From positions 1-43,366 of the forward strand of contig DAHWIF010000009.1 in NCBI GenBank assembly GCA_027345565.1: a stretch of DNA of 43,366 nt, read 5' to 3'. A program made the position numbers and the translations under genes. Source of the stretch: Candidatus Micrarchaeota archaeon. Its GTDB lineage: Archaea; Micrarchaeota; Micrarchaeia; Micrarchaeales; Micrarchaeaceae. Below are positions 4,437 through 40,431 of this stretch, one piece after another; position 1 is the stretch's first letter, and each line of letters opens with the position of its first letter. Below the pieces are notes generated by a model. It did not search any database, had not been told where the DNA came from, and saw only the letters and a list, made by a program, of their open reading frames with translations.

Positions 4437-4793
4437 GTGAAACAGACAACGCACTTCATGCCGGACTTCATGCCCATGGAGGCGAAGCGCATCATACTAA
4501 AGATACGCATACTCGGAAGGCTCAAGCTCAGCGGCCGCACCTATTCGTATGCGCTGATAAAGGAGTTTGGGAAGTCGGGCTTCTCAGAGTTCTACGGTCC
4601 GACGCTGAAGAACGACATGTACAACACGTTGAGGACGCTGGAGAAGGAGGGCTACATAAGGCTGAGCTTGAAGGTGGAGCACGGCAAGGTCAAGAACTAC
4701 TATGCAATAACGAGAAGGGGCGCGAGTGCGCTGAAGTCCGTCGGAAAGATGATGATGCAGACCGTGAAGCAGGCAGGCAAACTATTTGGGTGA
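4437..4793 (+). CDS. PadR-family transcriptional regulator
   Basis: YSYALIKE..MYNTLRTLEKEGYI..KNYYAITRRG winged-helix pattern; first gene of an exporter operon. Confidence 0.85.
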   Translation: MKQTTHFMPDFMPMEAKRIILKIRILGRLKLSGRTYSYALIKEFGKSGFSEFYGPTLKNDMYNTLRTLEKEGYIRLSLKVEHGKVKNYYAITRRGASALKSVGKMMMQTVKQAGKLFG

Positions 4794-5787
4794 TCCAATA
4801 CCAGACATAATAAGAATTGAGAATCTGACCAAGAGGTTCGGGAGCCTCGTAGCGGTCAACAACGTCAGCCTTGGCATAAAGGAGGGCGAGATATTCGGGC
4901 TGCTGGGCCCGAACGGCGCAGGGAAGACCACGATAATAAACATGCTCCTTACGCTGCTTACCCCCACATCGGGAAGGATAACAATCAACGGCATGGACCT
5001 CTCGAAGAATCACGAGAGGGCAAAGCAGCTCATGGGCCTGATGACGCAGGAGACCTTAGTCGAGGCGGACTTGACCGCGAGGCAGAACCTGAGCCTCTTC
5101 GCCCACCTGTACCACATACCAAGGAGCCAGGCCCGCAAGAGGATAGATGAGGCCTTGAGGGAGGCGGACCTCGTCAATTTCGCTGACGTCAAGGCTGGAA
5201 CCTTCTCCGGGGGAATGCAGCGGCGCTTGAGCCTGGTGCGCGCCATGCTGCAGGAGCCGAAGATACTACTCCTCGACGAGCCCACTACCGGACTCGACGT
5301 GCAGAACAGGAGCACCATGTGGGAGAGGATAAAGGAGCTCAACAGGAGCGGCACCACGATACTGCTCACCACGCAGTACCTAGAGGAAGCGGATGAACTC
5401 TGCAACCGCCTTGGCATAATAGACCACGGCAAGGTTATCGCTCTTGGTACTCCATCGGAGATAAAGAGGATAGCCGGCAGTGGGAGGGTACTCGAGATAA
5501 TCGTGAACCTGCAGGATGTCCAGAGGGTCGTATCCATGCTCAAGTCGAGGTTCAAGCTGGCTGCCGCAGCCAGCGGTGATAAGATAACCGCGCCGTTGGA
5601 CAGGGACGGCGAGGGCGAGTTCACAAGGATATCCTCAACGCTGGAAAGGCTGCGGATACCTGTCCTGTCGATAGGCGCACACCTGCCGACGCTCGATGAC
5701 GTCTTCATAAAGCTTACCGGCGCAGGAATGCGAGACGCTGCAGGGGAGATGCAGGGCGGCAGGGCCAACATGAGGTGGAGACGATGA
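4786..5787 (+). CDS. ABC-2 type (DrrA-like) exporter ATP-binding protein
   Basis: Walker A GPNGAGKT, signature FSGGM, Walker B LLLDEPT. True start may be ATA at 4798. Confidence 0.95.
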   Translation: MGDPIPDIIRIENLTKRFGSLVAVNNVSLGIKEGEIFGLLGPNGAGKTTIINMLLTLLTPTSGRITINGMDLSKNHERAKQLMGLMTQETLVEADLTARQNLSLFAHLYHIPRSQARKRIDEALREADLVNFADVKAGTFSGGMQRRLSLVRAMLQEPKILLLDEPTTGLDVQNRSTMWERIKELNRSGTTILLTTQYLEEADELCNRLGIIDHGKVIALGTPSEIKRIAGSGRVLEIIVNLQDVQRVVSMLKSRFKLAAAASGDKITAPLDRDGEGEFTRISSTLERLRIPVLSIGAHLPTLDDVFIKLTGAGMRDAAGEMQGGRANMRWRR

Positions 5788-6908
5788 GCCTGCTGGAGGA
5801 TTCGGTGACAATATTCACGCGAGAGTTCGCGATATTCAGGGCTAACCTGAGGTCGAACATAATCAGAACCGCGATATTCCCGCTTGTGATACTACTCTTT
5901 TTCGGTTTCCTCGGCTCTGCCATCACAAATGTCCCTGTAGTGGTGGTGAACTATGCAAACAACAACCAGGCAACGCAGTTCATAAGCACGCTGGGTTCGC
6001 AGAGCCTCATGGCGGTGCAGAGCGTCACCAACCAGAACGAAGCGCTGGCCATGCTTTCAGCCGGCCAGGTGAATTTCGTGATAGTCATACTGCCGGGGTT
6101 CCCATCGCAGAGCGGCAATCCGACCGTGCAGGTGTACTACAACAACCTTGAGTTCAGCACAACGCAGGAGATACTGCCTGCGATACAGAAGGATGCAGCC
6201 CTCTTCGGACCGGCCAATAATTTCCAGAGTCAGGAGTACCTGCCTGCATCGTCCGGCGACGCCGCTTCCGTGGTCACGCCCATCACTGGGGCGAGCGGCG
6301 GCTATGGGGACTTTCTCTTCTCCGGGGTGATAGGCATGATAATAGTGTTCAGCACCCTTTTCAGCGCAGGCATCGGCATACTTACGGACAAGCAGGGAGG
6401 GCAGATAAAGTCGTTCCTGATAACACCCATCAACAAATCCGCGATAGTGCTGGGCAAGGTGCTCTTCAGCGCCGTGCAGTCGGTCATTTCCGTATTCGTT
6501 GTCATAGTGATTGGCCTCCTGCTCGGGAACACGATCCTGATGGGCGTGACTGGCATAGTATGGATACTGATACTCGGCACGCTGCTTGGCATAACGATGA
6601 CTGGCATATCGATAAGCGTGGCGAGCAGGATGAAGAACATGACCGCATTCCAGATATTCGGCCAGACGCTCGGCCTACCGCTGTGGTTCATTGCAGGGGG
6701 CATAGTCCCGGTGTCGAGCTTCCCTCCCATACTCCAGGCGCTCAGCGTCGGCGATCCGATGACATACGCCATCAAGGGCTTCAGGTACGTGGTGCTCCAG
6801 GGATTCTATCCGTTTAGCAGCATGGTCGTTGATGTGGGCGTGCTAGCCGCACTCGGAATAATCACCACGATTATAAGTATATTGCTCTTCAAGAGCACGA
6901 TAGATTGA
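5784..6908 (+). CDS. ABC-2 type exporter permease
   Basis: About six hydrophobic segments with a large extracellular loop and a PMTYA motif; ATGA overlap with the ATPase stop codon. Confidence 0.92.
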   Translation: MSLLEDSVTIFTREFAIFRANLRSNIIRTAIFPLVILLFFGFLGSAITNVPVVVVNYANNNQATQFISTLGSQSLMAVQSVTNQNEALAMLSAGQVNFVIVILPGFPSQSGNPTVQVYYNNLEFSTTQEILPAIQKDAALFGPANNFQSQEYLPASSGDAASVVTPITGASGGYGDFLFSGVIGMIIVFSTLFSAGIGILTDKQGGQIKSFLITPINKSAIVLGKVLFSAVQSVISVFVVIVIGLLLGNTILMGVTGIVWILILGTLLGITMTGISISVASRMKNMTAFQIFGQTLGLPLWFIAGGIVPVSSFPPILQALSVGDPMTYAIKGFRYVVLQGFYPFSSMVVDVGVLAALGIITTIISILLFKSTID

Positions 6909-6926
6909 TGATAAAAAGGTGAAAAC

Positions 6927-8198
6927 ATGAACAAAAAGGCAATTTTCTGGGTGGCGTCGGCATTCGCTGTGATCTCAATGCTATTCGGGGTAGCTGCTGC
7001 GCAATCGACAAACGCGGCTACCGGCTCGTTGTCCATACAAGGCCTCACTGTGAGCCCGACACCGGTTGTCGCGGGCGACAACATAACAATATCATTCAAC
7101 CTCTTCAATTCATACAGCCAGCCGCTCTCTGACATCAGCCTGTGGGTCAGCGCGCAGAATCCGATAATAAACGTTTCGCCCGCATACAGCACTTACCTCA
7201 GCGGGATAGGCACGGGGCAGTATGGCGGTGTAGTGGCGAACAGGTTCACATATAAGCTGCACATTCCATCGACGCTGCCTGCCGGAGACTATGAGATAGA
7301 CGTGATTGCAAACTACCAGACAACAGAGGGGGTCAGTACCGGCATATCTGCTCAGTCGGTGATGCCGATCTACATATACGTATACGGGAAGCCGCAGGTG
7401 TCGTTGAACGTGTATCCGACAGGCAATATAGTCCCTGGAGAGGATTTCACGGCTATGCTCACTGTTGTCAATTCCGGCACAGACTTGGCAAGGAACGTGA
7501 CGGTCGAGCTGCTCAATTCCACTTACTTCAAGCCTGACGGCGCCGATACCTTCTCGTTCGGGATACTGGGCTCTGGGAGTTCCGCAAGCTCAACAGCCAC
7601 CATATTCACAGACCAGAACGTCACTGGCGGCCTGAACTACGTCAATGCGAGGGTCAGCTACACAACGAATGAGGGAGTGTACATGAGCAACGTGGTGCAG
7701 GTGCCTCTAGACGTGCTGCAGAACACCGCCAAGTTCATCGTGACAAACGTTACTGGAAAGGTTCAGGCCGGGGCTACATACGCGCCAGTCACCTTCACGG
7801 TCCAAAACACAGGAAATGAGGAGGCTACGGACGTTGAGTTCAGCCTCCAGACGGTCTACCCAATCACTCCTGTCAACCCTGACGTTTTCCTGGCGTCGAT
7901 AGGCCCAGGGCAGTCGGCTCACCTGACGTTCTACGTGCAGGGCAACTCGAACGGCGACACAGGGCAGTATCCAGTTACTCTCTACGCGCAGTGGAACCAG
8001 CCCAACGGGGCAGCCAACCAGCAGTTCTCTGGTTCGGCCAATTACTACGTTCCGGTAGAGGGCAAGGTCGGGCTCTTCACCGCAGCGAATGAGAACTACT
8101 TCATAGTAGCGGCCGTGGTGATAGTAGCGCTTGTCGCCATCAGGGTTGTGGTAGCGAGAGCGAGAAAGAAAGCTATAAATTCGAAGCCAAAGAAGTGA
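6927..8198 (+). CDS. Secreted, C-terminally anchored Ig-like / S-layer-domain (COG1361-like) protein
   Basis: Signal peptide, repeated beta-rich modules (V.N.G...A..V), many N-x-S/T sequons, C-terminal transmembrane helix and basic tail; GGTGA RBS. Confidence 0.78.
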   Translation: MNKKAIFWVASAFAVISMLFGVAAAQSTNAATGSLSIQGLTVSPTPVVAGDNITISFNLFNSYSQPLSDISLWVSAQNPIINVSPAYSTYLSGIGTGQYGGVVANRFTYKLHIPSTLPAGDYEIDVIANYQTTEGVSTGISAQSVMPIYIYVYGKPQVSLNVYPTGNIVPGEDFTAMLTVVNSGTDLARNVTVELLNSTYFKPDGADTFSFGILGSGSSASSTATIFTDQNVTGGLNYVNARVSYTTNEGVYMSNVVQVPLDVLQNTAKFIVTNVTGKVQAGATYAPVTFTVQNTGNEEATDVEFSLQTVYPITPVNPDVFLASIGPGQSAHLTFYVQGNSNGDTGQYPVTLYAQWNQPNGAANQQFSGSANYYVPVEGKVGLFTAANENYFIVAAVVIVALVAIRVVVARARKKAINSKPKK

Positions 8199-8208
8199 TG
8201 TTGGTGCA

Positions 8209-9147
8209 ATGAAGACTCTATACAACGGCCTTATCAGCGCGGCGATGAAGAGGTACAGGGTGCCAGATTGGATAGCCCCGTACATATACAGGTATGCAAA
8301 GCAGAGCGACCTTTTCACCATAAGGAGGGCGATCAATTTCATAAACGTGCGCAGGAAGAAGGGCGTCCTTACTGGCAGGCAGGTAAGGCTGCCAAACGGC
8401 GTTACATTCGACATAAAGACCGTATCGCACATACTCAACCAGTTCTATTACGGAGTAGATGCCGAAGCGAGGATATCGGAGGGGTGGTCTGCTGAATACA
8501 CTGACTACGATCACGCGAACTTCACGAAGCACTATAAGGAGCTTGCCGAGCTCAGGAGGAAGCATGCGAGGGCGCTTAAGAACATGATAGAGGGGCTGGG
8601 CCACAAGATAGACGGACCGAGCAAAGGGGTAGAGCGGGTGTTCAACACGATCGCGGAGCTCGATGAATGGCCTGACAGGCTGATAGCGACAGAGATAATA
8701 CTGAGGGATTCGTACGCCAGGCCATTCGGCTTCATCTTCTACAAGGTGTTTTACCCCGTTTCCCCAGAATTCATGAGATCGCTGGGCAAGCTCTTCGCTA
8801 AAAAAGATGACGGATACAGCTGGGCCGAATCTGAGATAAGGAGGGTCGTGGGGGAAGGGGCGCTGACCAGCGAGCACATTATAGGGCTAGCAGAAAGGAT
8901 ACTCGCTGAGATATACCGGTCGATAGAATCAGAGATGCCGCTGGCGAGAAGGTCGAAAGTGGAAGCCGAGACCATGCTGCTGCGCGACGTATCGGTCGCA
9001 TACCCGTTGCATACGCTGAAGGAGCTCGGGGTAGAGCTGGACATTGACGCGGAGATGAGGAAGATAGCCAGGATCGGGAAAAAGGGCGGTCGGAGAGGCG
9101 GCAGACCTGAACAGACGCGCAACAAAGCCCAGCGGAAAATGATTTAA
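8209..9147 (+). CDS. Hypothetical alpha-helical protein, possibly degenerate ferritin-like fold
   Basis: Long ORF with host-like codon usage, GGTG RBS and in-operon position. Fold is inferred only from the helical pattern (KHARALKNMIEGLG). Confidence 0.6.
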   Translation: MKTLYNGLISAAMKRYRVPDWIAPYIYRYAKQSDLFTIRRAINFINVRRKKGVLTGRQVRLPNGVTFDIKTVSHILNQFYYGVDAEARISEGWSAEYTDYDHANFTKHYKELAELRRKHARALKNMIEGLGHKIDGPSKGVERVFNTIAELDEWPDRLIATEIILRDSYARPFGFIFYKVFYPVSPEFMRSLGKLFAKKDDGYSWAESEIRRVVGEGALTSEHIIGLAERILAEIYRSIESEMPLARRSKVEAETMLLRDVSVAYPLHTLKELGVELDIDAEMRKIARIGKKGGRRGGRPEQTRNKAQRKMI

Positions 9148-9210
9148 AGCTTATCCACCTGATATTAGCTAGTTCAATCAAATTCAGGAAAATCACAAGA
9201 GTCGGACAAC

Positions 9211-9831
9211 ATGGCAGAAACCACAGTCGGCGAGGAACGTCAGGGGGCACCGGACAACATTATATACGTAGGGAAGAAGCCGGTCATGAACTATGTGCTT
9301 GCGGTAGTCACCCAGATAAACAGCGGTATCGGGACGGTGATGATAAAAGCGCGTGGAAATTCGATATCTAAGGCCGTTGACGTGGCCGATATAGTAAGGA
9401 AGAGGTTCCTGACAGACTTGAAGGACCCCAGCGGAGAGGGCATAACGATAGGTTCTGAGGAGCTTCCAAACGAGGACGGCACAAAGTCGAAGGTCAGCTA
9501 CATACAGATCGCGGCGGCGCTCGGCAAACTCAAGGGTGACGGTGCCGCGCAGCAGAAAAGTGGCATGGTCTACATCGGCAGGAAGCCTACAATGAACTAT
9601 GTGCTTGCGGTAGTCACCCAGATAAACAGCGGTATCGGGACGGTGATGATAAAAGCGCGTGGAAATTCGATATCTAAGGCCGTTGACGTGGTTGAGATAG
9701 TAAGGCACCGGTTCCTCCCTGACATGCAGGACCCCAGCTCTGAGGGCATAACAATAGAATCCGTGGAAATCGCCAACGAGGACGGCACCAAGTCGAAGAT
9801 AAGTTCGATACAGATATCGATAAAGAAGTAG
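9211..9831 (+). CDS. albA: Tandem two-domain Alba (Sac10b-family) nucleic-acid-binding protein
   Basis: Two complete Alba domains, each G(K/R)KPx[22 protein letters not shown](V/I)SxIQI. Confidence 0.95.
9286..9691 (+). repeat. 100-bp perfect direct repeat (9286-9385 = 9592-9691) within alba
   Basis: Base-by-base identity over 100 nt at an offset of 306 nt; the flanks diverge. Confidence 0.93.
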
Positions 9832-10191
9832 TCAGATCAGGTCGGAGCTGCTCACTGTGCCCAAGCACCTCATGCTCTTCTTAGAATCAACTACAGGCAA
9901 CCTCGTCAGGCCGCATTTTATAAGCATCTTGCGCGCGTCCTCTATGCTCCCGCTCTCCTCTATGAATATCCTGTGCATCATGGCGCTGCTGACTCTGCCC
10001 GAATCCCCGCGCAGGGACGATACGTCGAGCACTCCGACAAGCTTACCCTCGGATATAACTGGCAATACGCTCACGCCTGAGTTGCGCGCCAGCTGCTTCG
10101 CTGCCTTGAGCGACGCCTCGGGAGTTATGGCAACGATGTTCCTGTCTATAACATCGGCCAACGAGCCAGCCATGATGTTATTACCCAGCAT
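9832..10191 (-). CDS. Stand-alone CBS domain pair protein
   Basis: VSVLPVISEGKLVGVL and LTRLPVVD..LGTVSSSDL. Start may be ATG 10173. Confidence 0.88.
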   Translation of the reverse strand: MLGNNIMAGSLADVIDRNIVAITPEASLKAAKQLARNSGVSVLPVISEGKLVGVLDVSSLRGDSGRVSSAMMHRIFIEESGSIEDARKMLIKCGLTRLPVVDSKKSMRCLGTVSSSDLI

Positions 10192-10312
10192 ACCTATTAA
10201 TAGGTTTTTACCGATATGCTAGGTATGGGCGAAGGTGCGGCGGCTATTTTGCAGTTCATCATGCGTGATCCCGGAATTGCGTGGAAAGAATAGATATGGA
10301 ACCGGTGAATTT

Positions 10313-11350
10313 TTGCTATACAACATTACACACGTTGCCGATCTTGACGGGATGGCGAGTGCCGCTTTCCTGGCGCGGTGCTACGGCATGCCTACAGGCA
10401 ATATCATATTCGTAAATTATGGCGCACAGGACGTAGGACGCGCTATGAAAGAGCTCTCCGGCATTGAGGGTACAGGCAATGTGCTGGTCATAACAGATTT
10501 CAGCATGACACCGGAGAATTTCTCAATTATGGAGAAGGCGCTTGCGCGGTTCAGGAGGAAGAATAACAGCATAATATGGCTGGACCATCACCCATGGCCC
10601 GAGAGTATTATCAGGAAAGCATCAAAATACTGCGACATGATGATAGTAGGGGAGAACGCTTATTTCTGCGGGGCGGAGCTTGTATACAACCTTCTCTGCA
10701 AGAGGGACAGATACGGGGATAGGCTGGCGAAAATAACCCACCTATCGGACTTCTGGCTCAAGTCGAAATCAAGGAAGGACAACGAGACAGTAAGCATGGT
10801 GGCTTTTGGCATAAAGCAGATGCGCAGCTATGCGGATGGGGAGGACAGGCTACGCGGCTACGTGCATGATCTTTCACAGGGCCGAATCGGCTCTAGGCTC
10901 ATACGCGACGCCTATGAAGAGTACATGAGGAGGACCAGGCCAGAGCTGGAGAGAATGCTGAAGGAATGCAAGATAATAAAGTCAGCGGGCATAAGGATAG
11001 GCGTGGGCTTCGGCATTGTTCTCTCTGCGCAGGAGGCCTGCATGGCGATAATTGACAGGCTTAAGTGCGACATAAGCATTTACATATCTAATGACAGCAT
11101 GCACGGTAGCATGAGGAGCAGGCGCAACAAAGGGACCTGGGGCATCGACATACTTAAACTGGCTAAGAGCCTCAATGGGGGAGGCCACCCTCTAGCCGCC
11201 GGCTTCAGCATCGAGAATGAGGGATACGACCTCTTGAAGGCGCATGACAGGGAGCTTCTCGTTGACAGAATAGGGAAAGTTGCAGAGAGGCTTTACGGAA
11301 ATAGGGTCAGGTGGTTCCAGCAGAGCACAGGAAGGAGTATCACGAGATGA
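10313..11350 (+). CDS. DHH/DHHA1 phosphoesterase (nanoRNase-like)
   Basis: THVADLDG, ITDF, WLDHH and GGGHPLAAG motifs. Start placed at TTG, 4 nt after GGTGA. Confidence 0.88.
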   Translation: MLYNITHVADLDGMASAAFLARCYGMPTGNIIFVNYGAQDVGRAMKELSGIEGTGNVLVITDFSMTPENFSIMEKALARFRRKNNSIIWLDHHPWPESIIRKASKYCDMMIVGENAYFCGAELVYNLLCKRDRYGDRLAKITHLSDFWLKSKSRKDNETVSMVAFGIKQMRSYADGEDRLRGYVHDLSQGRIGSRLIRDAYEEYMRRTRPELERMLKECKIIKSAGIRIGVGFGIVLSAQEACMAIIDRLKCDISIYISNDSMHGSMRSRRNKGTWGIDILKLAKSLNGGGHPLAAGFSIENEGYDLLKAHDRELLVDRIGKVAERLYGNRVRWFQQSTGRSITR

Positions 11351-13006: not shown

Positions 13007-13122
13007 TGATTCACCGGAATTAGCAGGGAGTTAAACAGGGCAGGAATAGATAACTGCCGTATTTTCTTATATTACTCTGTGTGCAAACAATAAAAAGGTA
13101 TCGACCTGGCGCTCTGGGAAGG

Positions 13123-13196: not shown

Positions 13197-13302
13197 ACGC
13201 TACCTATGCTACATCAACAAATATAAAGAGGCATACTGCTGTTATGTGGAAAAATAAAAAATGGCGGCCTCATAGCTGCCTCGGCCGCGCATCACTGCGT
13301 GA

Positions 13303-23106: not shown

Positions 23107-24192
23107 TCAGAGGAACTTGCCGCCGCTCTTCGTAACAAGCACATCGTCCTCTATCCTCACTCCGCCGAAACCCTCTACGTATATGCCAGGCTCGTCGCTG
23201 AAGACCATGTTCTCCTGGATCTTTTCCTTGTAGCCTGGCGAGAGGTTCGGACCTACATCGTGCACGTCTATGCCTAGAGAGTGCCCGAGCCCGTGTATGA
23301 ATTTACCTTTGTAGATGCCATTGTGCGCCTTGTTTATGTACTCCATTGCATTGTTGTGAGGCACCTCGCACCTGACTCCAGGGCGTATGCTCTTCAGCGC
23401 TATCTCCTGCGCCTCCTTAACCGTGTTGTACATGTCTAGCATGCGCCTGTATTTATCCGATTTCTTGTCAGGCTTGAATATGAAAGTTCTAGTGACATCG
23501 GAGCAGTACCCCATATACCTGGCACCGGCATCAATCAAAACAAAGCTGTTCTCCTCAAGTTTTGTCCTGCCCGGGACATGGTGCGGCACAGCCGAATTCT
23601 TGCCGAAGCAGACAATCGTCTCGAAAGATGGGTCGTCGGCGCCGAACCACCTCATCAAGGAGTTGAACTCGGCAGCCAGCTCCTTCTCGGTGATCCCGAC
23701 CCTGAAACGATCCTCTATCTTGGAGAACGCCTTTTTCACTATGTTGTTTGCTATGCCGATCAGTTCTACTTCAGGCCATTCCTTTACCTGTCTGGCCTTT
23801 GCCAGCGCGCCGCTAGCGTCTACCATCCTTTTCGGTTTTCCGATCTTCCTGATCCTCTTGTACAGGTTTACCGGCAGGAACGTCCCGTTTATCCCGACGA
23901 CATTGCCCGCAAGCTTGCGCTTTAGCAGCTCCATCGTCTTGCTGCGCGATTCTGCTGCAATTACCTTGACCTCCTTCGGGCACATCCTCCTGGCGACGTC
24001 GTATTCAAGGATCGTTGTGATCAAGGTAGCCTTCTTCCTTTCGGCTACCAGGATGGAGCTCTCGAACGAGCCGGCGTAGAGCCCGGTGAGGTAGACGAAG
24101 TGGCTGTCCTTCTGCGTGGTGTTCATCAGCAGTATCCTTTCCGCATCCGTTCCATCGAATATCCTTTCAAGCCTGGAAGCTATGCTCATCAT
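23107..24192 (-). CDS. Xaa-Pro peptidase (M24B family)
   Basis: SAVPHH, IDAGARYMGYCSDVTRT, HGLGHSLGIDVHD, EPGIY and GVRIEDD. Confidence 0.94.
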   Translation of the reverse strand: MMSIASRLERIFDGTDAERILLMNTTQKDSHFVYLTGLYAGSFESSILVAERKKATLITTILEYDVARRMCPKEVKVIAAESRSKTMELLKRKLAGNVVGINGTFLPVNLYKRIRKIGKPKRMVDASGALAKARQVKEWPEVELIGIANNIVKKAFSKIEDRFRVGITEKELAAEFNSLMRWFGADDPSFETIVCFGKNSAVPHHVPGRTKLEENSFVLIDAGARYMGYCSDVTRTFIFKPDKKSDKYRRMLDMYNTVKEAQEIALKSIRPGVRCEVPHNNAMEYINKAHNGIYKGKFIHGLGHSLGIDVHDVGPNLSPGYKEKIQENMVFSDEPGIYVEGFGGVRIEDDVLVTKSGGKFL

Positions 24193-25868: not shown

Positions 25869-25877
25869 GTTATCACA

Positions 25878-26271: not shown

Positions 26272-27345
26272 TCACACGAATCCAGGGGTGTAGCTCTCGC
26301 CGCTCCCGTTTATGAATACTGTATAGGTAGCGCCGACGAAGGTGCTGTTCTCGCCGCTGCCGCCGTTAGACAGCCATACCATTATCGTGTACTCTCCGGC
26401 GCCGTACTGCGATACCTGCTTGTCGATGTTGAAAGAGATCGAAAAAGACTGCCCGTTTATCAGGTACCTGTTTGCATCTATAGTCTCAATTCCCTGGTAG
26501 TAATACAGGGGGCTGCTCGCCACTCCTGCTATCTCCTGCCCATAGCTGTAAGAGCTTGTGTTCCACAGCTGGGCTACGCTCATGTTGCTCACCGGGGCAT
26601 CGTAAGAAACCAGCACTTGAGATATGCTGTAGCCGTTTTGCGCGCTCCCTGAGAGCGAGACGTCGCCGTTCGAATACATCGGCGTGCCACCGCTCCATGT
26701 TGTGTAGTTGTCTATGAAGTCCTCAACAAGGTAGACGGTGCTTGAGTTGTACGCTACGCCTATGCTCACCTGGTTGTGGTTGGGATTTAGTATGTTGTAC
26801 CTGTGGCCATTGTTGCAGCACTGCGAGTCGTTGTAGAGCATGCTGTCCTCCATACTCCTTATCGCAGAGTAGACGTTTATCGTGCCGCGGCAGCCGAAGA
26901 TGCCGCAGGATTCGTTCCGTATATATGCGACATTCTCTTCTACGGCGCCCCTGCCGCCGAGCAGCGTGTATCTCATGTAAGGTTTCATCCCGTAGATGTC
27001 CCAATGGCTCAGGTAGCCGTACTGGAGCATGCTCTCCGCGTGCTGCGGGCCGGACTGCTCCCCTGACAGGCTCACATTCTGCAGCCCGTACGACGAGCGT
27101 ACCTGGTTTATCAGCGAGAGCGCGTACAGCACAGGCTGGCTTGCGTTTGATGGACCTGCCGTGCTGGTCTGCATGGTTGTGTTGCCGGTATAATTAGAAG
27201 TCACAAGCGTAGTGCTGCCCGGTTGTGGCACGCCAGGTGGCATCAAGCCATGGATTCCTGGGAGCATGCCGTTGTAATAGAGATAGAAAAGCGCAAACGC
27301 TATGAGGAACCCTATTACGATACCGGCTATGAGCCCTGCTGCCGT
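26272..27345 (-). CDS. Membrane-anchored CAP (SCP/PR-1) domain protein
   Basis: LINQVRS, QHAESML..YLSHWD, EENVA and GHRYNILNP..VSIG. The frame stays open upstream of the track ATG (27267) through a transmembrane segment to ACG 27345. Confidence 0.85.
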   Translation of the reverse strand, partial: TAAGLIAGIVIGFLIAFALFYLYYNGMLPGIHGLMPPGVPQPGSTTLVTSNYTGNTTMQTSTAGPSNASQPVLYALSLINQVRSSYGLQNVSLSGEQSGPQHAESMLQYGYLSHWDIYGMKPYMRYTLLGGRGAVEENVAYIRNESCGIFGCRGTINVYSAIRSMEDSMLYNDSQCCNNGHRYNILNPNHNQVSIGVAYNSSTVYLVEDFIDNYTTWSGGTPMYSNGDVSLSGSAQNGYSISQVLVSYDAPVSNMSVAQLWNTSSYSYGQEIAGVASSPLYYYQGIETIDANRYLINGQSFSISFNIDKQVSQYGAGEYTIMVWLSNGGSGENSTFVGATYTVFINGSGESYTPGFV

Positions 27346-27461
27346 TCCATCACCTCACATAAGCTTCATTAATGCGTAATTTAGAGGTTGCGTTTTCCAT
27401 TGGGATTCATAAGATTCAGGCAGATTAATAAAGATTTAATGCGCATGCGTTGCGTGGTAGC

Positions 27462-31730: not shown

Positions 31731-31783
31731 GGACCGGCTTGCCGCAATGAAGGAAGCGATCGCAAATACGCTAAGTCCTACCA

Positions 31784-33739
31784 GTGATAATTTTGGACGA
31801 GAAAGAATCGAAAGAAAAGGCCAAGGAGCAACTTGGCCAGATTTTTGACAAGATAAAGTCGATGATGCCTGACGAAGCCGGGTTCATCAAGGCGGAGTTC
31901 GAGGGCCCTGACATCGTGATATACCTGAAGAACGCCAAGGCGGTCTACCAGGATGACATGATAGTGAGGAGCATAGCCTCGGCTGTGAAGAAGAAGCTCA
32001 TAATCAGGAGCGACGAGGCGCACCTGATGGAGCCGGAGAAGGCCAAGGAAGCCATATCCGCGATTGTCCCGAAGGAGGCGGTGATAGCAAACATAAGGTT
32101 CATGCCTAGATTCTCGGAGGTATACATAGAGGCGATGAAGCCTGGCCTAGTCATAGGCAAGGGCGGGTCCACTCTGAAGGCGATATCTATGCAGACGGGG
32201 TGGTGCCCAAAGGTGCTGCGCACCCCGACGATGAGCAGCGAAACAATATCGGGGGTAAGGCAGCTGCTGTTCAACGAGGAGGATTTCAGGAAGAAGTTCC
32301 TTACGAACGTCGGCAAGGACATAAACAGGGTGATAGCGAAGAGCGACTGGCTGAAGGCGACGGCGCTCGGGGGCTACAGGGAGGTCGGGAGGAGCAGCCT
32401 GCTTCTCGAGACCCCGAACTCCAAGATACTGGTGGACTGCGGGCTCAGCCCAGAGCCATCCGCAAGGGGGAGCGACGCGGATGCGAACAAGGCGTTCCCC
32501 TACCTCGACAGCGCGAACCTATCGATAAACGAGCTTAACGCAGTGGTCATAACGCACTCGCACATGGACCACATGGGTTTCATCCCCTACCTGTTCAAGT
32601 ACGGCTATGACGGGCCGGTTTACTGCACGCCGCCCACGAGGGACCTATTCGCGCTGCTACTGAAGGATTACGTGAAGCTTGTGCAGAGGGCCGGCGGCAC
32701 GCCGCTATACGACGAGAAAGACGTGAGGAAGATGCTGCTTCACACCATAACGAGGGAGTACAACGAGGTTACGAACATAACGGATGAGATGAAGCTCACA
32801 TACCACAATGCCGGCCACATACTTGGCAGCGGGACCGTGCACCTGCACGTAGGCGAGGGGATGCACAACATAGTGCACACCGGCGACATGAAATACGGCT
32901 TCACCAGGCTGTTTGACTCCGCGAACGTCAGATACCCGAGAGTTGACTCGCTTTTCATGGAGAGCACCTATGGCGGCCAGAACGACATCACGCCGAACAG
33001 GCACGAGCAGGAGCGCATGCTCATGGAGACCATAAAGAGGACTGTTCAGGGAGGCGGCAAGGTGCTGATACCCGTCTTCGCGGTTGGCAGGGCGCAGGAG
33101 ATACAGATGGTATTGGAGAGCTACCTGGCGAACGAGGGCCCGTACAAGATGGAGGTTCCGGTCTACCTTGACGGCATGATACTGGAGGCTAGCGCCATAC
33201 ACACAGCGTATCCGGAATACTTGAAGGAGAGCCTGAGGAACAGGATACTGAACAACAGGAGCCCGTTCGAGAGCGAGATATTCGAGATAGCTAAGGGCGA
33301 GAGGGCTGAGCTTATGGAGAAGGGCCCGTCAATAGTTGTGGCGAGCGGCGGGATGATGAACGGGGGCGCCAGCGTCGAGTACTTCCGCATGCTGGCTGAG
33401 GATCCTAAGAACACGCTCATATTCGTGGGGTTCAACAGCGCCAACTCGCTTGGGAGGCGCCTGCAGAACGGCCTCAGGGATGTAGTCCTCCCGGACCAGG
33501 ACGGAAAGCTCGCGCCGCTGAAGGTGAACATGAACGTCGTAACCGTTGAGGGCTTCTCCGGCCACAGCGACAGGCGTCAGCTGGTCGGCTTCGCCGAGAA
33601 CCTTAGGCCGAAGCCGAAGACGATTTTCACGATGCACGGGGAAGAGAGCAAATGCGAGGACCTTGCGAGGACCTTGGGAAGGCTGATGCACGTCGATTCG
33701 AGAGCTCCGATGAATCTAGATACGATAAGGCTGAAATGA
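31784..33739 (+). CDS. fttA: aCPSF1 / FttA KH-beta-CASP ribonuclease (transcription termination factor)
   Basis: KH PGLVIGKGG, LGGYREVGRS, HSHMDH, AGHILGS, ESTYG, FSGHSD and NLDTIRL; adjacent to psmB. Confidence 0.95.
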   Translation: MIILDEKESKEKAKEQLGQIFDKIKSMMPDEAGFIKAEFEGPDIVIYLKNAKAVYQDDMIVRSIASAVKKKLIIRSDEAHLMEPEKAKEAISAIVPKEAVIANIRFMPRFSEVYIEAMKPGLVIGKGGSTLKAISMQTGWCPKVLRTPTMSSETISGVRQLLFNEEDFRKKFLTNVGKDINRVIAKSDWLKATALGGYREVGRSSLLLETPNSKILVDCGLSPEPSARGSDADANKAFPYLDSANLSINELNAVVITHSHMDHMGFIPYLFKYGYDGPVYCTPPTRDLFALLLKDYVKLVQRAGGTPLYDEKDVRKMLLHTITREYNEVTNITDEMKLTYHNAGHILGSGTVHLHVGEGMHNIVHTGDMKYGFTRLFDSANVRYPRVDSLFMESTYGGQNDITPNRHEQERMLMETIKRTVQGGGKVLIPVFAVGRAQEIQMVLESYLANEGPYKMEVPVYLDGMILEASAIHTAYPEYLKESLRNRILNNRSPFESEIFEIAKGERAELMEKGPSIVVASGGMMNGGASVEYFRMLAEDPKNTLIFVGFNSANSLGRRLQNGLRDVVLPDQDGKLAPLKVNMNVVTVEGFSGHSDRRQLVGFAENLRPKPKTIFTMHGEESKCEDLARTLGRLMHVDSRAPMNLDTIRLK

Positions 33740-34257
33740 TGAAAGTTATCCTTTATATGGCAACAACGCCCAATGGCATGATTGCAAGAAAGAATGATGA
33801 CTCTGATTTTATATCGGGAACAGAATGGAAGGAGTACCTTAAGATGATAAAAAGATGTGGCAACGTTATAATAGGCAGGAGGACTTTTGAGATTTGCGCT
33901 TACGACCAGCACATTTTTCCATTCCCCAATGCCCTGAATGTGGTAATGACAAAGGGACGGATAAAGAACAGGTGGCCTATACAGGTGGTGACCACGAATA
34001 AGTCGCCAAAACAGGTCATATCGATGCTTAAGGAGAAGGGGTTTGCATATGCATTGCTAGCTGGCGGTGCAAAGCTCAATTCGAGCTTCATGAAGCAAGG
34101 ACTGGTTAATGAGATTTATCTCGATGTTATACCTCGCATGCTTGGAGGAGGCATAAGTCTATTTTCTGACTCTAATTTTGAATCCAGACTGAAACTGATT
34201 GGTACCAGAAAATTTTCACCCAACATAATACAATTGCACTACAAAGTGCTCAGATAA
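33736..34257 (+). CDS. Dihydrofolate reductase / RibD C-terminal family protein
   Basis: KVILYMATTPNGMIA, IIGRRTFE, AGGAKL..GLVNEI and P.MLGGGISLF; ATGA overlap with fttA; AT-richer. Confidence 0.88.
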   Translation: MMKVILYMATTPNGMIARKNDDSDFISGTEWKEYLKMIKRCGNVIIGRRTFEICAYDQHIFPFPNALNVVMTKGRIKNRWPIQVVTTNKSPKQVISMLKEKGFAYALLAGGAKLNSSFMKQGLVNEIYLDVIPRMLGGGISLFSDSNFESRLKLIGTRKFSPNIIQLHYKVLR

Positions 34258-35373
34258 TCAGAACAGCCCGAACTTCTTCTTGCCGCTGTGCGTCTTGCCG
34301 CCATCGAGTTCGGCGAACCTTTCGAGCAGTGCCTTCTGCTCGGGGCTCAGGCTTTTCGGGACGTCCACTATGACCCTTATCACTTCGTCGCCATGCCCGT
34401 TGCCGTTGAACTTCGGCATGCCCTTGTTCTTGAGGTAAAGTTTCGTGTCGGTCTGCGTGCCGGGCTCTATTTTTACCCTTTCGCTTCCGTCAAGCGTCTC
34501 CACCTCTACCGTTCCGCCGAGAGCAGCCACATAGAAAGGCAGGTGCAGGTCTACGCGCAGGTCATTGCCATTTCTCGTGAAGAGCTTGTCCTTCAGCACA
34601 TTTATGTCGACGTAGAGGTCCCCCTGCCTCTCTTCGCCATAGTCCCCCATCCCGCGGACCCTGAGCCTCGTGCCCGTGTCGACGCCTGGCGGCACCTTGA
34701 AATCTATCTTATCCTCAACGCGGATCCTCCCTTTGCCATTGCACTTCCTGCAGGCCTTCTCTACGCTCTTGCCGGAGCCACCGCAATCCGGGCACGGCGT
34801 TATCGTCTGCATCACCCCGAACGGCGTCCTCCTGGTCGTCCTCACCTGTCCTGTGCCGTTACACCTCCTGCATTTCTGCACGCCGGTGCCTCCGATGCCA
34901 TCGCAAACGTCGCATCTCTTCACGTGGTTGACGAACACCTTCTTGTTTGTACCGGTTGCCGCCTCGCTGAGAGTGACATCGACCCTGGCGAGGATGTCGC
35001 TGCCAATATCAGAATGCCTGGATGCATGCCTCCCCATGTCGAATATGCTGAAGAGGTCGCTGTCGCCGAAGCCGAACTGTATGCCCATCTGCTTGAATAT
35101 CTCGTCTATGTTGAAGTTCCTGAAGATGTCCTCCTGCGTGAACCTCTGGCTGAAGCCCTCAGGCCCGAAGGTATCGTACTGCCTACGCTTCTCCGGATCG
35201 CTCAGGACCGCATACGCCTCGTTCACCTCCTTGAATTTTTCCTCTGCGTCCTTGTTCTTGTTCCTGTCTGGGTGCAGCTTCAGGGCAAGCTCCCTGTACG
35301 CTCTCTTTATCTCCGCTTCGCTAGCGCTCCTCGGCACCCCCAGGATTTCATAGTAGTCTTGCTTCCCTGCCAA
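34258..35373 (-). CDS. dnaJ: Chaperone DnaJ
   Basis: J-domain [13 protein letters not shown] region and four CxxCxGxG repeats. Confidence 0.97.
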
Positions 35374-35379
35374 GGCGCA

Positions 35380-37212
35380 TCACTTCTCTACCTTGAAATC
35401 GGTGTCGGTGGCGTTGGGGTCTGCCCCCTGGTCCGGGTTCTGTCCATCGCCGGGCTGCTGCCCCTCGCCGCCCTTGTACATGCTCGCACCGATCTCCTCC
35501 ATCGCGCCTTTCAGCTCCTCCATTCTGCTCTTTATCTCTTCGTAATCTTCCTTCTTCACAGCTTCTGCGAGTGACTCCTTTGCCTTCGTTATCTTTTCGA
35601 CCGTCTCCTTAGGCACCTTCTCCTTGTACTCCTCCAGGGAGCGCTCGCTCGTGTAGATCAGCGACTCGGCGCTGTTCTTGAGCTCCACCTGCTCGCGTAT
35701 CTTCTTGTCTTCCTCTTCGAACTGCTGCGCCTCCTGCATCTTCTTGTCGATATCGTCCTTGCTCATCTTGTGCGGCGCTACTATGTCCATGCTCTGCGAC
35801 TTGCCGGTCTTGACGTCCTTGGCCGTCACGTGCAATATGCCGTTGGAGTCTATGTCGAAAGTGACCTCTATCTGCGGGATGCCCCTCCTAGCCGGAGGTA
35901 TTCCGGTAAGGGCGAACCTGCCGAGGTCTATGTTGTCTTTCGAGAGGGCGCGCTCTCCCTGCGTTATGTGTATGTCGACGCGGTCCTGCATGTCATCGGC
36001 TGTTGTGAATACCTGCGACTTCTTGACAGGTATGGTCGTATTCCTCTCTATCAGCTTTGTCGCAACGCCGCCAAGCGTCTCTATGCTGAGGGAGAGCGGG
36101 GTCACATCGAGAAGGACTATGTCCTTGACCTCTCCGGTCAGCACCCCGGCCTGTATGGCGGCGCCGAGGGCGACGCACTCCATTGGATCGACTCCACGCT
36201 CCACTTTCTTGCCCAGAAGCTGCTCCACATACCTCTGCACTATCGGCATCCTTGTCGGCCCGCCTACGAGTATCACCTTGTCGAGCTGGTTGGGCTCCAT
36301 CTTCGCGTCCTTCAGCGCCTGCATCACTGACTTGGCGGACTTCTCTATTATCGGAACCACCAGAGCCTCTAACTTCGCCCTCGTGAACTTGTAGGTGAAG
36401 TTTATCGGGTTGCCTTTCTGGTCCTTGCTCAGGAAGGGCAAATTTATATCTGTGTCGAGGACCGTGGAGAGCTCTATCTTGGCGCGCTCCCCGGCCTCCC
36501 TGAGCCTCTGCATCGCCTGGCGGTCCTTAGTTATGTCGACGCCGGTCTTCTCCTTTATCTCTTTGGCCAGCATGTCAACTATCGCATTGTCCATGTCGGT
36601 CCCGCCGAGCTGCGTGTCGCCGTTCGTCGAGACGACCTCGAAGACCCCCTTGCCGAAGTCCATGATCGTCACGTCGAGGGTGCCCCCGCCTAGGTCATAT
36701 ACCAGTATCTTCATCTCCTTATTCGCCTTGTCGATGCCGTATGCGAGCGATGCCGCGGTAGGCTCGTTAACAAGCCTCACCACCTTCAATCCCGCAATCT
36801 CTCCTGCATCCTTGGTGGCCTGCCTCTGGTTGTCATTGAAGTATGCAGGCACAGTGATGACGGCCTCCTTGACCTCCTCGCCCAAGAACGATTCCGCATC
36901 CTTCTTTATCTTCTGGAGAAGCATTGCTGAGAGCTCCTGCGGCGAGTACTCCTTCCCGAATATCTTGTACTTGTAATCTGTCCCCATCTTCCGCTTGAAC
37001 GCGAATGCCGTGCCATCAGGATTCGCCACCGCCTGCCTTCTTGCCGGCTCTCCAATCAGCCTCTGCCCGTCCTTCGTGAACGCGACGAAGCTCGGAAACG
37101 CCTTGCCGTATAAAGACGTTCCTTCAGCGCTTGGAATTATTACCGGGCGTCCGCCCTCCAGCACTGCTGCTGCTGAATTTGAAGTTCCGAGGTCCACTCC
37201 TATTATTTTCAT
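35380..37212 (-). CDS. dnaK: Chaperone DnaK (Hsp70)
   Basis: [28 protein letters not shown] and [10 protein letters not shown]; ATG 5 nt after GGTGA. Confidence 0.98.
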
Positions 37213-37231
37213 GTTTTTCACCTTTTTATCG

Positions 37232-37744
37232 CTATTTTTCCTTTTTCTCCTCTTCAGTCTCTTTCGCTATTATCACAGATGCAGGTCTGAGCATTATCCC
37301 ATTGAAGGTGTATCCCTTCTTTACCACCTCTAGTATCGTGCCTGGCTTCTTGCTGCTCCCAGCCTTCACCACCACTATCTCGTGCTTGTACGGATCGAAC
37401 GCTCCATCGGTGCTTATCTCCGTGAGCCCTTCCCTTTCAAGGGAATCCATGAGATTCGAATAAACCATCTCAACACCTTTCGCGAGGCTCCTGTCCTGCG
37501 ACGAGCTTATCGAGAGCATCGCGAGCTCGAATTCGTCAAGCACTGGCAGCAGGCCCTGCAGGATTTCCGCCTTTCCGAGCGCCTGGGCCTTCTCCATGTC
37601 GGATTTGACTCTCTTCTTGTAGTTGTCGAACTCTGCTGCAAGGCGGAGCATTCTCTCCTTCATCTCGGCCTGCTCGTCCTTCGGCTTTTCCTCCTTGTCG
37701 CTCTTGGCGTCTACTTTTGCCTTTTCCTCTTCGTTCTCGGTAAT
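37232..37744 (-). CDS. grpE: Nucleotide exchange factor GrpE
   Basis: [25 protein letters not shown] and KKGY..LRPASV. Acidic N-terminal extension open up to ATT 37744; first in-frame ATG is 37663. Confidence 0.94.
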
Positions 37745-38172
37745 GCGATCACCTTTCTATCCTTTTGCGGCTCCAACTGGCTGTAAAACATCCTGTCGAA
37801 CTCCTTTGCCATGTCAAGCATACGCTGCATCTCCCTGTTTATGTCGTATTCGAGTTCCTCTATCACTTTGGACATCTCGGTAGCTCTCAAATGGTACTTC
37901 CTGCCGTGCTTCACTATTATGCCGGCATTAATGAACCTGTTGAGGTGGTATATCACTGTGCTCCTTGCAACATCGCGGTCGAACTTGAGCTCGGAGCTGG
38001 AGAGCCCCTCCTCCCCTTCCCTTGCCGCCTCCGTGAAGTCCCTGAGTATCTGCTCCTCTATGCTGTTCTTCTCATCTCCAGATAGGCCGAGCACGGCGAC
38101 AAACCACCTGATTATCTTATCGGGATCCTTCTCGTCGGGCTTCTCAATCGCTCTGATCTCTATCTTCTCCAT
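37711..38172 (-). CDS. Winged-helix transcriptional regulator heading the grpE-dnaK-dnaJ operon
   Basis: GLSSSEL..VARSTVIYHLNRFINAGIIVK..YHLR helix-turn-helix and wing, followed by a coiled-coil. Confidence 0.82.
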   Translation of the reverse strand: MEKIEIRAIEKPDEKDPDKIIRWFVAVLGLSGDEKNSIEEQILRDFTEAAREGEEGLSSSELKFDRDVARSTVIYHLNRFINAGIIVKHGRKYHLRATEMSKVIEELEYDINREMQRMLDMAKEFDRMFYSQLEPQKDRKVIALPRTKRKRQK

Positions 38173-38304
38173 AGCACCCCATCGTAGTATTATGGGGTTA
38201 AGATATAAATATCTTGCGTTTTGTAGTATGTTTTATTGACATATCAAATAAAAGCTGTAGAAAGAGGCTGGAGTGCGATTAGAGGGGGCTGCAGTCCGGC
38301 TGCG

Positions 38305-38904
38305 CTAAGCGTCTGCGCCTGCCCTCTTGAATGCTGGCAATGAGGCTGCGCGGCCTTCATAATACTCCCTTTTAAGATATGTCTCCATTGTCTCGGCGCG
38401 GTACAGCTGCTCTGTGAGTGCTCTGGATCCCATCCTGATTGCCATATCTACGTCGGAGAGCGTGTCTTCGAACGTGCGGTATCGTACAGGCACATAACCC
38501 CCTCCGCCGCCGATCGGCACCTCCAAGACGCCCCCGCTCGCGGCTGCAGCCATAAGCGATGCCATATGCTTCGTCCTTATCTCAGGCGTACCGTAAATAG
38601 CCTCTATGACCTTGCACCTCGGGTATGTGTGCTTGAGCGCGTTCGAGAGCCTGTCTATGAGCGGTATCTCGACCGGATCGCCGAAGTACCTCCTCAGTTG
38701 GTCCAATGTTGGCTCCTCCATGAGATACCCGAGCAGCCCGTGTATCCTCGATACGTAAGAGAGCTGGGTGTCGTCCCCACTCTTCCTATCCATTCCGCGC
38801 ATGAGCACCCTATCGTAGTACTCGTTTTCCACCGCTATAAGAGCGTTTGCGTAGTCCGTAGCAGTTTTGGCTGTTTTACTCATTTTATGACCCATATAAA
38901 CCAT
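38305..38904 (-). CDS. Hypothetical protein
   Basis: 199-aa ORF filling the gap between fni and the chaperone operon; no motif recognised. Confidence 0.55.
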   Translation of the reverse strand: MVYMGHKMSKTAKTATDYANALIAVENEYYDRVLMRGMDRKSGDDTQLSYVSRIHGLLGYLMEEPTLDQLRRYFGDPVEIPLIDRLSNALKHTYPRCKVIEAIYGTPEIRTKHMASLMAAAASGGVLEVPIGGGGGYVPVRYRTFEDTLSDVDMAIRMGSRALTEQLYRAETMETYLKREYYEGRAASLPAFKRAGADA

Positions 38905-38948
38905 GTCTTTACCAGATATATATTTGTTTTGCTAGCCCTGCTGGCTTT

Positions 38949-40001
38949 CTAGCTCCTGATGCCCCTGTCGATCAGCACGCTCTTCAGCGGATCCTTGAAT
39001 GCTACCTTAGCCTTGGCGAGCTCCTTGAGCGATTGGAAACCCAGCCTTGCCATTTCCTTCCTGATTCCATCTGATGTCCCGCTCAGGAACCTATAAACGC
39101 CCTCGCTGCCCCCCTTCCTCTCACTGATTATAACAGGCTGCGCAATCCCGCAACGCTCCGCGCCTATGGCCAGCGCCTTGACCACGTCTTGCGGCGTCCT
39201 TATCCCGCCGCTTGCCCAGACAGGCCCGCCGAACACGCTCTTCGCTTCCAGCACAGAGAGCGCAGTCGGTATCCCCCAGTCCCAGAACGCGTCGCCATAC
39301 TTGCTCCTGTTCCTGTAGGTCTCTACTCCTATCCATGTGGTGCCGCCTGCGCCCTGCACGTCTATTGCGTACACCTTGCCGTTTAGCTGCCGTGCCACCT
39401 CCTTCGATATGCCATTGCCTACCTCCTTCACTATGACAGGCTGGTGTATCCCCTTTGCGACCTCGATTATCCGCGCCATGACCCCGCGGAAGTCCATGTC
39501 ACCCTCAGGCTGTATGCTCTCCTGCCCAGGGTTAGTGTGCACAGCGAGCATGTCCGCCCTTATTGAATCAAGCATCTTCTGTATGCGCTCGTTCGCGTAT
39601 GCCGGAAGTTTCGACGCACCTATGTTGCCTATCAATATCAGCTCAGGCGCAAACTTCTTCACGTCGTAAGTGTAGAGCAGGTCCTCTTTCTCTATCATGG
39701 AGCGCTGGCTTCCCACGCCCATTGGTATGCCGAGGCGCGCGGCCGCCATCGCTATATTCTTGTTTATCTCTAACGTTGCTGGATGCCCTCCTGTCATGCC
39801 TGATATGAATATTGGGGCGGATACCGGCCTGCCGAGCAGCTCAGACTCTGTATCGACATCTTTCTGGTCCAACGCGCCTCCATTAGGCTGCACCTCGACC
39901 AGCTCAAGCATCGTCGTCTTCTTCCTGTACTGCGTGTTCTTTTCGACTATTATCTGGATATGCTTGAGCTTCCTTTCCTGGGTTATGCCGCTGTCTGGTA
40001 T
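38949..40001 (-). CDS. fni: Type 2 isopentenyl-diphosphate delta-isomerase
   Basis: RKLKH, ISGMTGG, GVGSQR, GNIG, HTNPGQESIQPEGD, VKEVGNG, GAGGTTW, WGIPT and ASGGIR. The 5' end is extended to ATA 40001 to include RKxxH. Confidence 0.95.
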   Translation of the reverse strand: MPDSGITQERKLKHIQIIVEKNTQYRKKTTMLELVEVQPNGGALDQKDVDTESELLGRPVSAPIFISGMTGGHPATLEINKNIAMAAARLGIPMGVGSQRSMIEKEDLLYTYDVKKFAPELILIGNIGASKLPAYANERIQKMLDSIRADMLAVHTNPGQESIQPEGDMDFRGVMARIIEVAKGIHQPVIVKEVGNGISKEVARQLNGKVYAIDVQGAGGTTWIGVETYRNRSKYGDAFWDWGIPTALSVLEAKSVFGGPVWASGGIRTPQDVVKALAIGAERCGIAQPVIISERKGGSEGVYRFLSGTSDGIRKEMARLGFQSLKELAKAKVAFKDPLKSVLIDRGIRS

Positions 40002-40005
40002 GTTC

Positions 40006-40431
40006 TCACTTGAACCTGTATATCGGCGCCTGGCCTAACGCGCCTATGTTGATGGAATTCGTCAAAAACATGGCGATCCTGAGCTGCTTCATAAACATGC
40101 CGGCGCTGTCCGCGTCAGACCTTTTTATGCACGGGAGCACGGAGTTGCCCAGCAGCCTTATCGCTTTCGCAGCGTCCAGCCCGTCCTCGACCTCGACAGT
40201 TTGGCTGGACTGGAGCCTGACCGCCAGCTTGCCGTCGACAAACACGTTTTTCTGGAATACCGATGGGATTGCGGCTCTGCTGGAAAGCTGCGCCGCCTCC
40301 TCATTGCTCGACGCCTGCACTGCCATGGGGCAAGGCAGCGTAAAGCCTTCATTAAGCGCATACCTCGTGTCTGCCTCGCTGAGCGCCATATCGGGTATTG
40401 CGCAGTGCACAAACTGTATGCTATCTATCAT
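40006..40431 (-). CDS. Truncated IDI-2-like paralogue (N- and C-terminal segments only)
   Basis: IQFVHCAIPDMALSEADT..L..P matches the IDI-2 N-terminal segment; GLDAAKAI and QLRIAMFLT....AL match the C-terminus; FMN/catalytic core is absent. Confidence 0.7.
   Translation of the reverse strand: MIDSIQFVHCAIPDMALSEADTRYALNEGFTLPCPMAVQASSNEEAAQLSSRAAIPSVFQKNVFVDGKLAVRLQSSQTVEVEDGLDAAKAIRLLGNSVLPCIKRSDADSAGMFMKQLRIAMFLTNSINIGALGQAPIYRFK

Follow-up and report, generated by a model that had tools for sequence, protein, structure and literature searches.

Where do genes begin when a well-placed Shine–Dalgarno (SD) sequence is followed by a codon that is none of ATG, GTG and TTG? The question is raised by a 43,366-base contig, the whole of which is called the window here, from the draft genome of a Candidatus Micrarchaeota archaeon (G000; 600 kb in 16 contigs, 84% complete, G+C 0.53, with relatives of 0.5–0.9 Mb). 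An earlier note on this DNA had placed near-cognate codons 4 nucleotides (nt) past a (G/A)GTGA motif at four genes, namely fni (encoding type 2 isopentenyl diphosphate isomerase), grpE, a gene for a CAP-domain protein and, possibly, a gene for an ABC transporter ATPase, and reading the sequence confirmed all four coordinates (Table 1). Throughout, a near-cognate codon is a one-mismatch relative of ATG other than GTG or TTG, and ATG, GTG and TTG are called canonical. From reading frames, family profiles, genome-wide tallies and comparison with other genomes of the genus, we conclude that SD-led translation very probably does start at near-cognate codons: at ATA, ATT or ACG within the window and at CTG or ATC in the rest of the genome and the genus.

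Leaders in the window and the genome-wide SD signal

The fni frame opens after TAG 40037–40035, 11 codons upstream of the ATA, and its first canonical codon is ATG 39911, 30 codons past the ATA; a start there would drop residues 1–30, and positions 1–335 of the TIGR02151 profile match residues 9–334 of the ATA-started protein. The grpE frame opens after TAG 37759–37757, 4 codons before the ATT, and offers no canonical codon until ATG 37663, 27 codons downstream of it; positions 5–165 of the Pfam GrpE profile match residues 3–161 of the ATT-started protein. For the CAP gene, the frame opens after TGA 27357–27355, 3 codons before the ACG, the first canonical codon is ATG 27267, 26 codons past it, and the N-terminal extension is a hydrophobic helix. 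The earlier note had described these three extensions as family-typical and free of any preceding in-frame ATG, GTG or TTG, with which both frames and profiles agree; that profiles need the extension, and that no canonical start precedes the family-typical sequence, counts for initiation at the near-cognate codons. At the ABC ATPase gene, an in-frame TTG (4786) overlaps the GGTGA motif, and TGA 4791–4793, within the SD, is the stop of an upstream PadR-like gene (4437–4793); because a related genome (G001) has the same TTG upstream of its ATG, this TTG lies in the terminal part of the upstream gene and is not the ABC start. The TGA of the fni SD is also a stop, that of an upstream 141-residue open reading frame (ORF; 40431–40006), and ends 4 nt before the start. 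Ordinary starts follow GGTGA at similar distances, as previously described: ATG 6927 (spacer AAAC), rps6e ATG 13006 (ATCA) and TTG 10313 of a DHH gene (ATTT) at 4 nt, and the dnaK ATG at 5 nt.

Table 1 Features of the window and candidate starts elsewhere in the genome (window positions unless a contig is named; aa, amino acids; CDS, coding sequence).
Feature	Location	Strand	Details
Window	whole contig C14, 43,366 bases		genome G000
Class II LysRS head, candidate start ATC	627..629	−	5 nt past GGGTGA; possible
ABC ATPase SD GGTGATC	4789..4795	+	GGTGA 4789–4793, spacer TCCA, ATA at 4 nt
ABC transporter ATPase CDS	4798..5787	+	read from ATA 4798–4800; 329 aa; Pfam ABC_tran
CAP-domain protein CDS	26272..27345	−	read from ACG 27345–27343; 357 aa; Pfam CAP
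CAP extended SD GAGGTGAT	27349..27356	−	8 nt; GGTGA 27354–27350, spacer TGGA, ACG at 4 nt
dnaK start, for comparison	37212..37222	−	GGTGA 37222–37218, 5-nt spacer AAAAC, ATG 37212; HSP70 profile
grpE CDS	37232..37744	−	read from ATT 37744–37742; 170 aa
grpE extended SD AGGTGATC	37747..37754	−	8 contiguous nt complementary to 16S 3′ tail; GGTGA 37753–37749, spacer TCGC, ATT at 4 nt
fni CDS	38949..40001	−	read from ATA 40001–39999; 350 aa
fni SD AGTGA	40006..40010	−	spacer GAAC, then ATA at 4 nt
MFS gene	C10:41253		CTG; motif-based candidate
Motif-based candidate	C5:10922		ATC
DedA/VTT gene	C12:10369		ATC; motif-based candidate
ATCase gene	C15:35940		ACG; motif-based candidate
Motif-based candidate	C8:488		AGG
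Motif-based candidate	C4:77752		CTG
Motif-based candidate	C11:43708		AGG

Across the genome, first ATGs are preceded by the consensus g-G-T-G-A-t (−9 to −4), with GTGA at 4-nt spacing in 56 genes and in at most 8 at any other spacing. The 16S rRNA 3′ end reads ...GAUCACCUCGU, which makes GGTGATC the complementary SD core; its tail, ...GATCACCTCGT in place of the usual ...CACCTCCT, fits GGTGATC rather than GGAGG in that role. At the 16S locus itself (L133, C15:4894–7251), a model of 1,478 positions matches across 2,358 bases, the roughly 880 extra bases in the gene representing an intron or insertion.

Because the TGA and GTG within GGTGA open and close frames, plain motif counting is confounded, and gene-anchored tallies were used instead, based on 565 genes that cover 90% of the genome and were called with a periodic Markov model for which long ORFs served as the training set. 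A genome-wide tally of the codon after the SD, which the earlier note had proposed as a check, bore out an enrichment of near-cognate codons: in 555 ORF-called genes, the in-frame codons lying before the first canonical one were near-cognate at 7 of the 19 (G/A)GTGA+4 sites and at 7 of 102 sites with control spacings of 1, 7, 10 and 13 (Fisher p = 0.0014), and an SD weight matrix (12 columns, threshold ≥6 bits) gave 11/35 at SD+4 versus 9/332 at controls. Where at least 10 codons separated the candidate from the first canonical codon, the intervening sequence scored as coding at 7 of 8 near-cognate sites and at none of 14 sites with other codons; extensions from the near-cognate codon to the next ATG had coding scores of +7.5 to +12.5. 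The earlier note had further suggested that SD position may dominate over codon identity. In that form the suggestion found no support, since the non-coding scores of all 14 other-codon extensions indicate that codon identity still counts and that only one-mismatch codons act as starts.

The near-cognate codons also tend to lie behind longer SDs. Contiguous pairing with the 16S tail runs to 8, 8, 4, 7, 6 and 7 nt at six near-cognate starts, compared with a mean of 5.0 nt at the 102 canonical starts with a weight-matrix SD, of which 5 reach at least 7 nt (one-sided Mann–Whitney p = 0.003). Among the near-cognate starts, ATH codons are matched in frequency by CTG and ACG, at a constant spacing of 4 nt. 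By our estimate, 7 near-cognate starts with comparative support and about 7 motif candidates are present among the roughly 565 genes of the genome, so that near-cognate codons would head roughly one in ten SD-led genes.

Start codons across the genus

Orthologous loci were taken from other genomes of the genus (G001–G012) and from beyond it, and their start regions were lined up. In this comparison, which the earlier note had likewise proposed, the same codon position proved to be ATG or TTG in some species and ATA, ATT, ATC, ACG or CTG in others; the 4-nt spacer varies freely across species, and the codons after the start change mostly synonymously. The orthologues, drawn from as many as 12 further genomes of the genus, rule out assembly error as the source of the near-cognate codons.

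At grpE, 8 of the 11 readable genus orthologues have a near-cognate start (7 ATT and 1 ATA; the other 3 have ATG). ATT lies 4 nt past GGTGA in G000, G003, G008, G007, G001, G002 and G011 (spacers TCGC, TAGC, TGAA, TTAA, TAAA, TAAA and TCAA, respectively), at a protein identity of 64–86%, and the remaining ATT-bearing species likewise have SDs of 7–8 nt. G012 has ATA, without a canonical codon in the open frame upstream, and the start is ATG in G010, G006 and G009. The ATT of G007 comes straight after an in-frame TAA, so that nothing further upstream is translatable in that frame. A 153-residue ORF without a Pfam match (window 37711–38172, minus strand) shares 34 nt with the beginning of grpE, in a different frame; relatives also have it upstream of grpE, and it could be a heat-shock regulator of the grpE–dnaK operon.

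The other window genes show the same exchange of codons. For fni, 3 of the 7 readable orthologues are near-cognate, all with ATA (G000, G003 and G001, with proteins beginning IPD), and the homologous codon is ATG in G004, G002, G005 and G009 (MPD); between G000 and G001, 8 synonymous and 7 non-synonymous changes follow the start. The CAP gene has ACG in G000 and in G003, where an in-frame TGA immediately precedes it; in G001, an ATG lies one codon away and the helix is retained, and the changes after the start number 5 synonymous and 4 non-synonymous between species. The ABC ATPase gene is near-cognate in 2 of 13 readable orthologues: ATA in G000 and, in G005, ATC 4 nt past GGTGA with no canonical codon upstream. 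Ten genus genomes have ATG at exactly that position, and G004 has a canonical start in a region aligned less surely. Two observations concern the surroundings of these starts. The fni and ABC ATPase starts have the 10-mer ATACCAGACA (I/M-P-D) in common (40001–39992 and 4798–4807), and aIF1 begins MPD too; the common head is probably a coincidence of a frequent N-terminus. At the CAP gene, a four-codon mini-ORF (ATG AAG CTT ATG TGA, 27358–27372, minus strand) stops just before the GGTGA, and an out-of-frame ATG over the SD (27350) opens a 7-codon frame only.

Elsewhere in the genome, three further genes behave in this way. The OGG glycosylase gene (C10:4823) has CTG in G000, G003, G007 and G002, in each case with an in-frame stop directly before it (TAG in G000), TTG in G011, G008 and G004, and ATG or an unclear codon in other genomes; the OGG_N profile match, from position 5, needs the extension, and 8 synonymous versus 3 non-synonymous changes follow the start between species. 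The Bud32 kinase gene (C10:8962) has CTG in G000, TTG in G003, ATT in G002 and ATG in nine others, and position 1 of TIGR03724 falls on residue 7 of the CTG-started protein. For methionyl-tRNA synthetase (MetRS; C9:11973), CTG is retained in 6 of 6 close orthologues, and in G008 the frame opens at a stop 3 codons upstream with no in-frame GTG. Adjoining Bud32 in G003 (L076, C22, oriented position 432) is a 76-residue zinc-ribbon-like protein (…CESCGRKVPRSKAV…) with a candidate CTG start 4 nt past GGTGA and its next canonical codon 7 codons on. Among 119 genes at genus loci fetched for other reasons there was one unrelated new case (an ABC-2 permease of G004, GGTGA-TTTT-ATT), and 84 genes from outside the genus but within the order yielded one good case, GGTGA-ATAA-ACG immediately after a stop, heading a small protein whose N-terminus we take to resemble ribosomal protein uL29.

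Alternative explanations and the initiation machinery

Several points weigh against this assignment of starts. Translation at near-cognate codons is read here from sequence, and the gene set comes from a home-made ORF/Markov caller rather than from a validated annotation. Two further candidates proved false: at an FAD-oxidoreductase gene (C4:58624), an 'ATA' 6 nt past AGTGA lies two codons downstream of the position where relatives have ATG and G000 has TTG, and at an NreA-like gene, ACG 24095..24097 (plus strand), 5 nt past GGTGA, heads a signal-peptide-like extension that relatives match only from residue 34–50 and in which G003 has two stops, so that this sequence is not coding in relatives. 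Motif-only calls thus overcount. Two genes offer a canonical alternative: MetRS of G000 has an in-frame GTG within its SD, and so does a class II lysyl-tRNA synthetase (LysRS) gene at the contig end (window 3–638, minus strand), with GTG 638. The LysRS protein is 41–45% identical to its best genus match, with no orthologue there, compared with about 75–90% for neighbouring genes, and could be a xenologue or represent a second type of LysRS. Finally, the fidelity factor aIF1 looks intact in G000. Its SUI1 domain (PF01253) was found in 29 of the 31 genomes searched, G000 included, and 94 residues of the G000 protein align to M. jannaschii aIF1 with the zinc knuckle and a normal basic loop retained (loop 1, KKAKFNR versus TKRRFGK, keeping its basic and aromatic character). 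Sulfolobus aIF1 is reported to reject AUU in vitro (review, PMC4705826), yet G000 appears, from its sequence, to use AUU, AUA, ACG and CUG in vivo with aIF1 present.

Could the proteins instead start at the downstream ATGs, the in-frame sequence above them being an untranslated leader? This is what automatic callers give, and public collections hold the resulting 320-residue Fni and 143-residue GrpE, as the earlier note had anticipated (the 331-residue form of the CAP protein is not on record as such). Those ATGs, however, lack an SD (matrix scores −14.8, −11.2 and −15.3), the extensions have coding scores and accumulate synonymous changes, they hold profile-matched sequence (from profile position 1 in Fni, 5 in GrpE, 1 in Bud32 and 5 in OGG_N), and relatives with an upstream ATG encode the same N-termini, all of which makes N-terminally shorter proteins improbable. 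Still less credence attaches to sequencing or assembly error, or to recent start loss in decaying genes. The genome is a draft, and slightly deleterious changes accumulate in reduced symbiont genomes, but the same codons occur in separately assembled species (as with the grpE ATT) and the ORFs are intact, without internal stops. A second assembly, the Logan assembly of one DNA run, is identical to the window over 37200–40500, which lends weak support because the run is possibly the source sample itself; contigs of two metatranscriptome runs from the same study included none matching that interval and have no bearing either way. Editing of the mRNA to AUG before translation, as occurs with ACG in plant organelles, is comparably remote: to turn five codons (ATA, ATT, ATC, ACG and CTG) into AUG, such editing would have to carry out four or more different base conversions spread over three codon positions, and we know of no AUG-creating mRNA editing system in archaea.

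A more serious contender, albeit an unlikely one, is reinitiation that does not depend on a start codon, in which a ribosome terminating at the upstream gene's stop, be it the TGA within the SD or one a few nt off, would restart at the nearest codon and near-cognate codons would be tolerated through this coupling only, with no part for SD-driven de novo initiation. In 5 of the 6 well-supported cases in G000, the upstream gene ends 0–4 nt before the start or overlaps it (with the stop within the SD at fni, the ABC ATPase gene and Bud32, an adjacent stop at OGG and the overlap at grpE), and in Haloferax and E. coli coupling of this kind depends on the distance being short (PMC10666635). However, 51 of the 102 canonical SD-led starts also lie within 20 nt of an upstream gene or overlap one, so 5 of 6 does not clearly stand out; the near-cognate starts pair over a longer SD, which points to SD dependence; and the CAP gene has no upstream gene at all. 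Coupling may help initiation but does not appear to be required for it.

SD-led initiation at the near-cognate codons is therefore the reading we prefer. Under it, GGTGA(TC) in the mRNA would pair with the 16S 3′ tail, the fixed 4-nt spacer would place the next codon in the P site, and the initiator Met-tRNA (anticodon CAU) would pair with two of the three codon bases. By analogy with bacterial work, the first residue would be methionine and output would be reduced, and the weak start may be either selected (as dosage tuning, for instance of grpE) or tolerated drift in a small-genome symbiont.

A cause at the level of initiation factors was not found: aIF1 and the initiator tRNA look ordinary, and Sua5 and Bud32 are present. 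The mark that sets the near-cognate starts apart is the longer SD. Loss of aIF1 was rejected as a cause, its SUI1 domain being present and its loop not degraded. An altered initiator tRNA or genetic code was also rejected, since the anticodon is CAU and ATA and ATT align with isoleucine inside genes; the initiator tRNA-Met(CAU) (C4:73011–73098) has the A1–U72 pair and three G–C pairs in the anticodon stem that mark initiator tRNAs. Missing N6-threonylcarbamoyladenosine (t6A) machinery fails in the same way, as both Sua5 and Bud32 are present. The genome also encodes tRNA-Ile(UAU) (C4:63426–63500), and several of its tRNAs (Met, Trp, Tyr and Ser) contain introns; 28–34 tRNAs were found in this incomplete genome. 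The earlier note's suggestion of relaxed initiation is thus upheld in part: near-cognate sites are real, conserved and interchange with ATG and TTG, whereas relaxed fidelity throughout the lineage is only possible. We regard such a lowering of initiation stringency across the lineage, and perhaps across its order, in which an extended GGTGATC-type SD at 4 nt would let any one-mismatch codon (AUA, AUU, AUC, ACG or CUG) be accepted despite intact aIF1, with about one-tenth of SD-led genes drifting among ATG, TTG, CTG and ATH, as a tentative and rather doubtful proposition.

Known systems and significance

Starts of this kind have bacterial precedents. E. coli infC and pcnB begin with AUU, and ATT, ATC, ATA and CTG, but not ACG, are listed as starts in NCBI translation table 11; like the G000 starts, those of infC and pcnB combine a single-mismatch codon with the initiator tRNA and low efficiency, and infC differs in being autoregulated via IF3, which archaea lack. 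A closer likeness is found in S. aureus and B. subtilis, where conserved AUA and AUU starts lie behind extended SDs (infC, cvfC1, ccpN and citZ; Nat Commun 2026, PMC13009471) and, in S. aureus, give about 10–30% of AUG expression (PMC13009471). There, as in G000, a near-cognate codon follows a well-spaced and unusually long SD, both are conserved across species, and the weak start is read as a means of lowering expression. The two differ in that the bacteria have the fidelity factor IF3 and G000 is an archaeon with aIF1/aIF2, and in number: the bacterial study found 4 sites in one entire genome, and G000 has at least 7 comparatively supported putative starts among about 565 genes, including ACG and CTG. 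Among archaea, the P. abyssi aEF1A leader is given as GGAGGUGAUUUAAAUG (PMC6237735), with the same SD core and spacing as in G000, and aIF1 is common to both organisms. By every sequence-level feature of the class, the G000 starts fall within the known class of SD-led near-cognate starts and call for no new mechanism. What stands out is their density, the turnover of start codons within one genus and the presence of ACG and CTG beside ATH codons; in the literature on archaea and DPANN, represented mostly by abstracts, we found no description of near-cognate or other non-canonical starts in small-genome archaea.

These starts matter for how such genomes are read. Callers restricted to ATG, GTG and TTG deprive Fni of 30 residues, GrpE of 27 and OGG of 32, and they cost Bud32 60 residues of its kinase N-lobe and the CAP protein its membrane or secretion anchor. 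In small-genome archaea known solely through metagenomes, such truncation distorts the calling of domains, localization and completeness. As in S. aureus, the weak codons go with the longest SDs, yet here in an organism with eukaryote-like initiation factors, and the leaders provide a concrete natural set for testing the trade-off between aIF1/aIF2 proofreading and SD pairing. If initiation stringency is indeed lowered in this lineage, it would represent a natural archaeal trade-off of SD strength against codon–anticodon proofreading by eukaryote-type factors.

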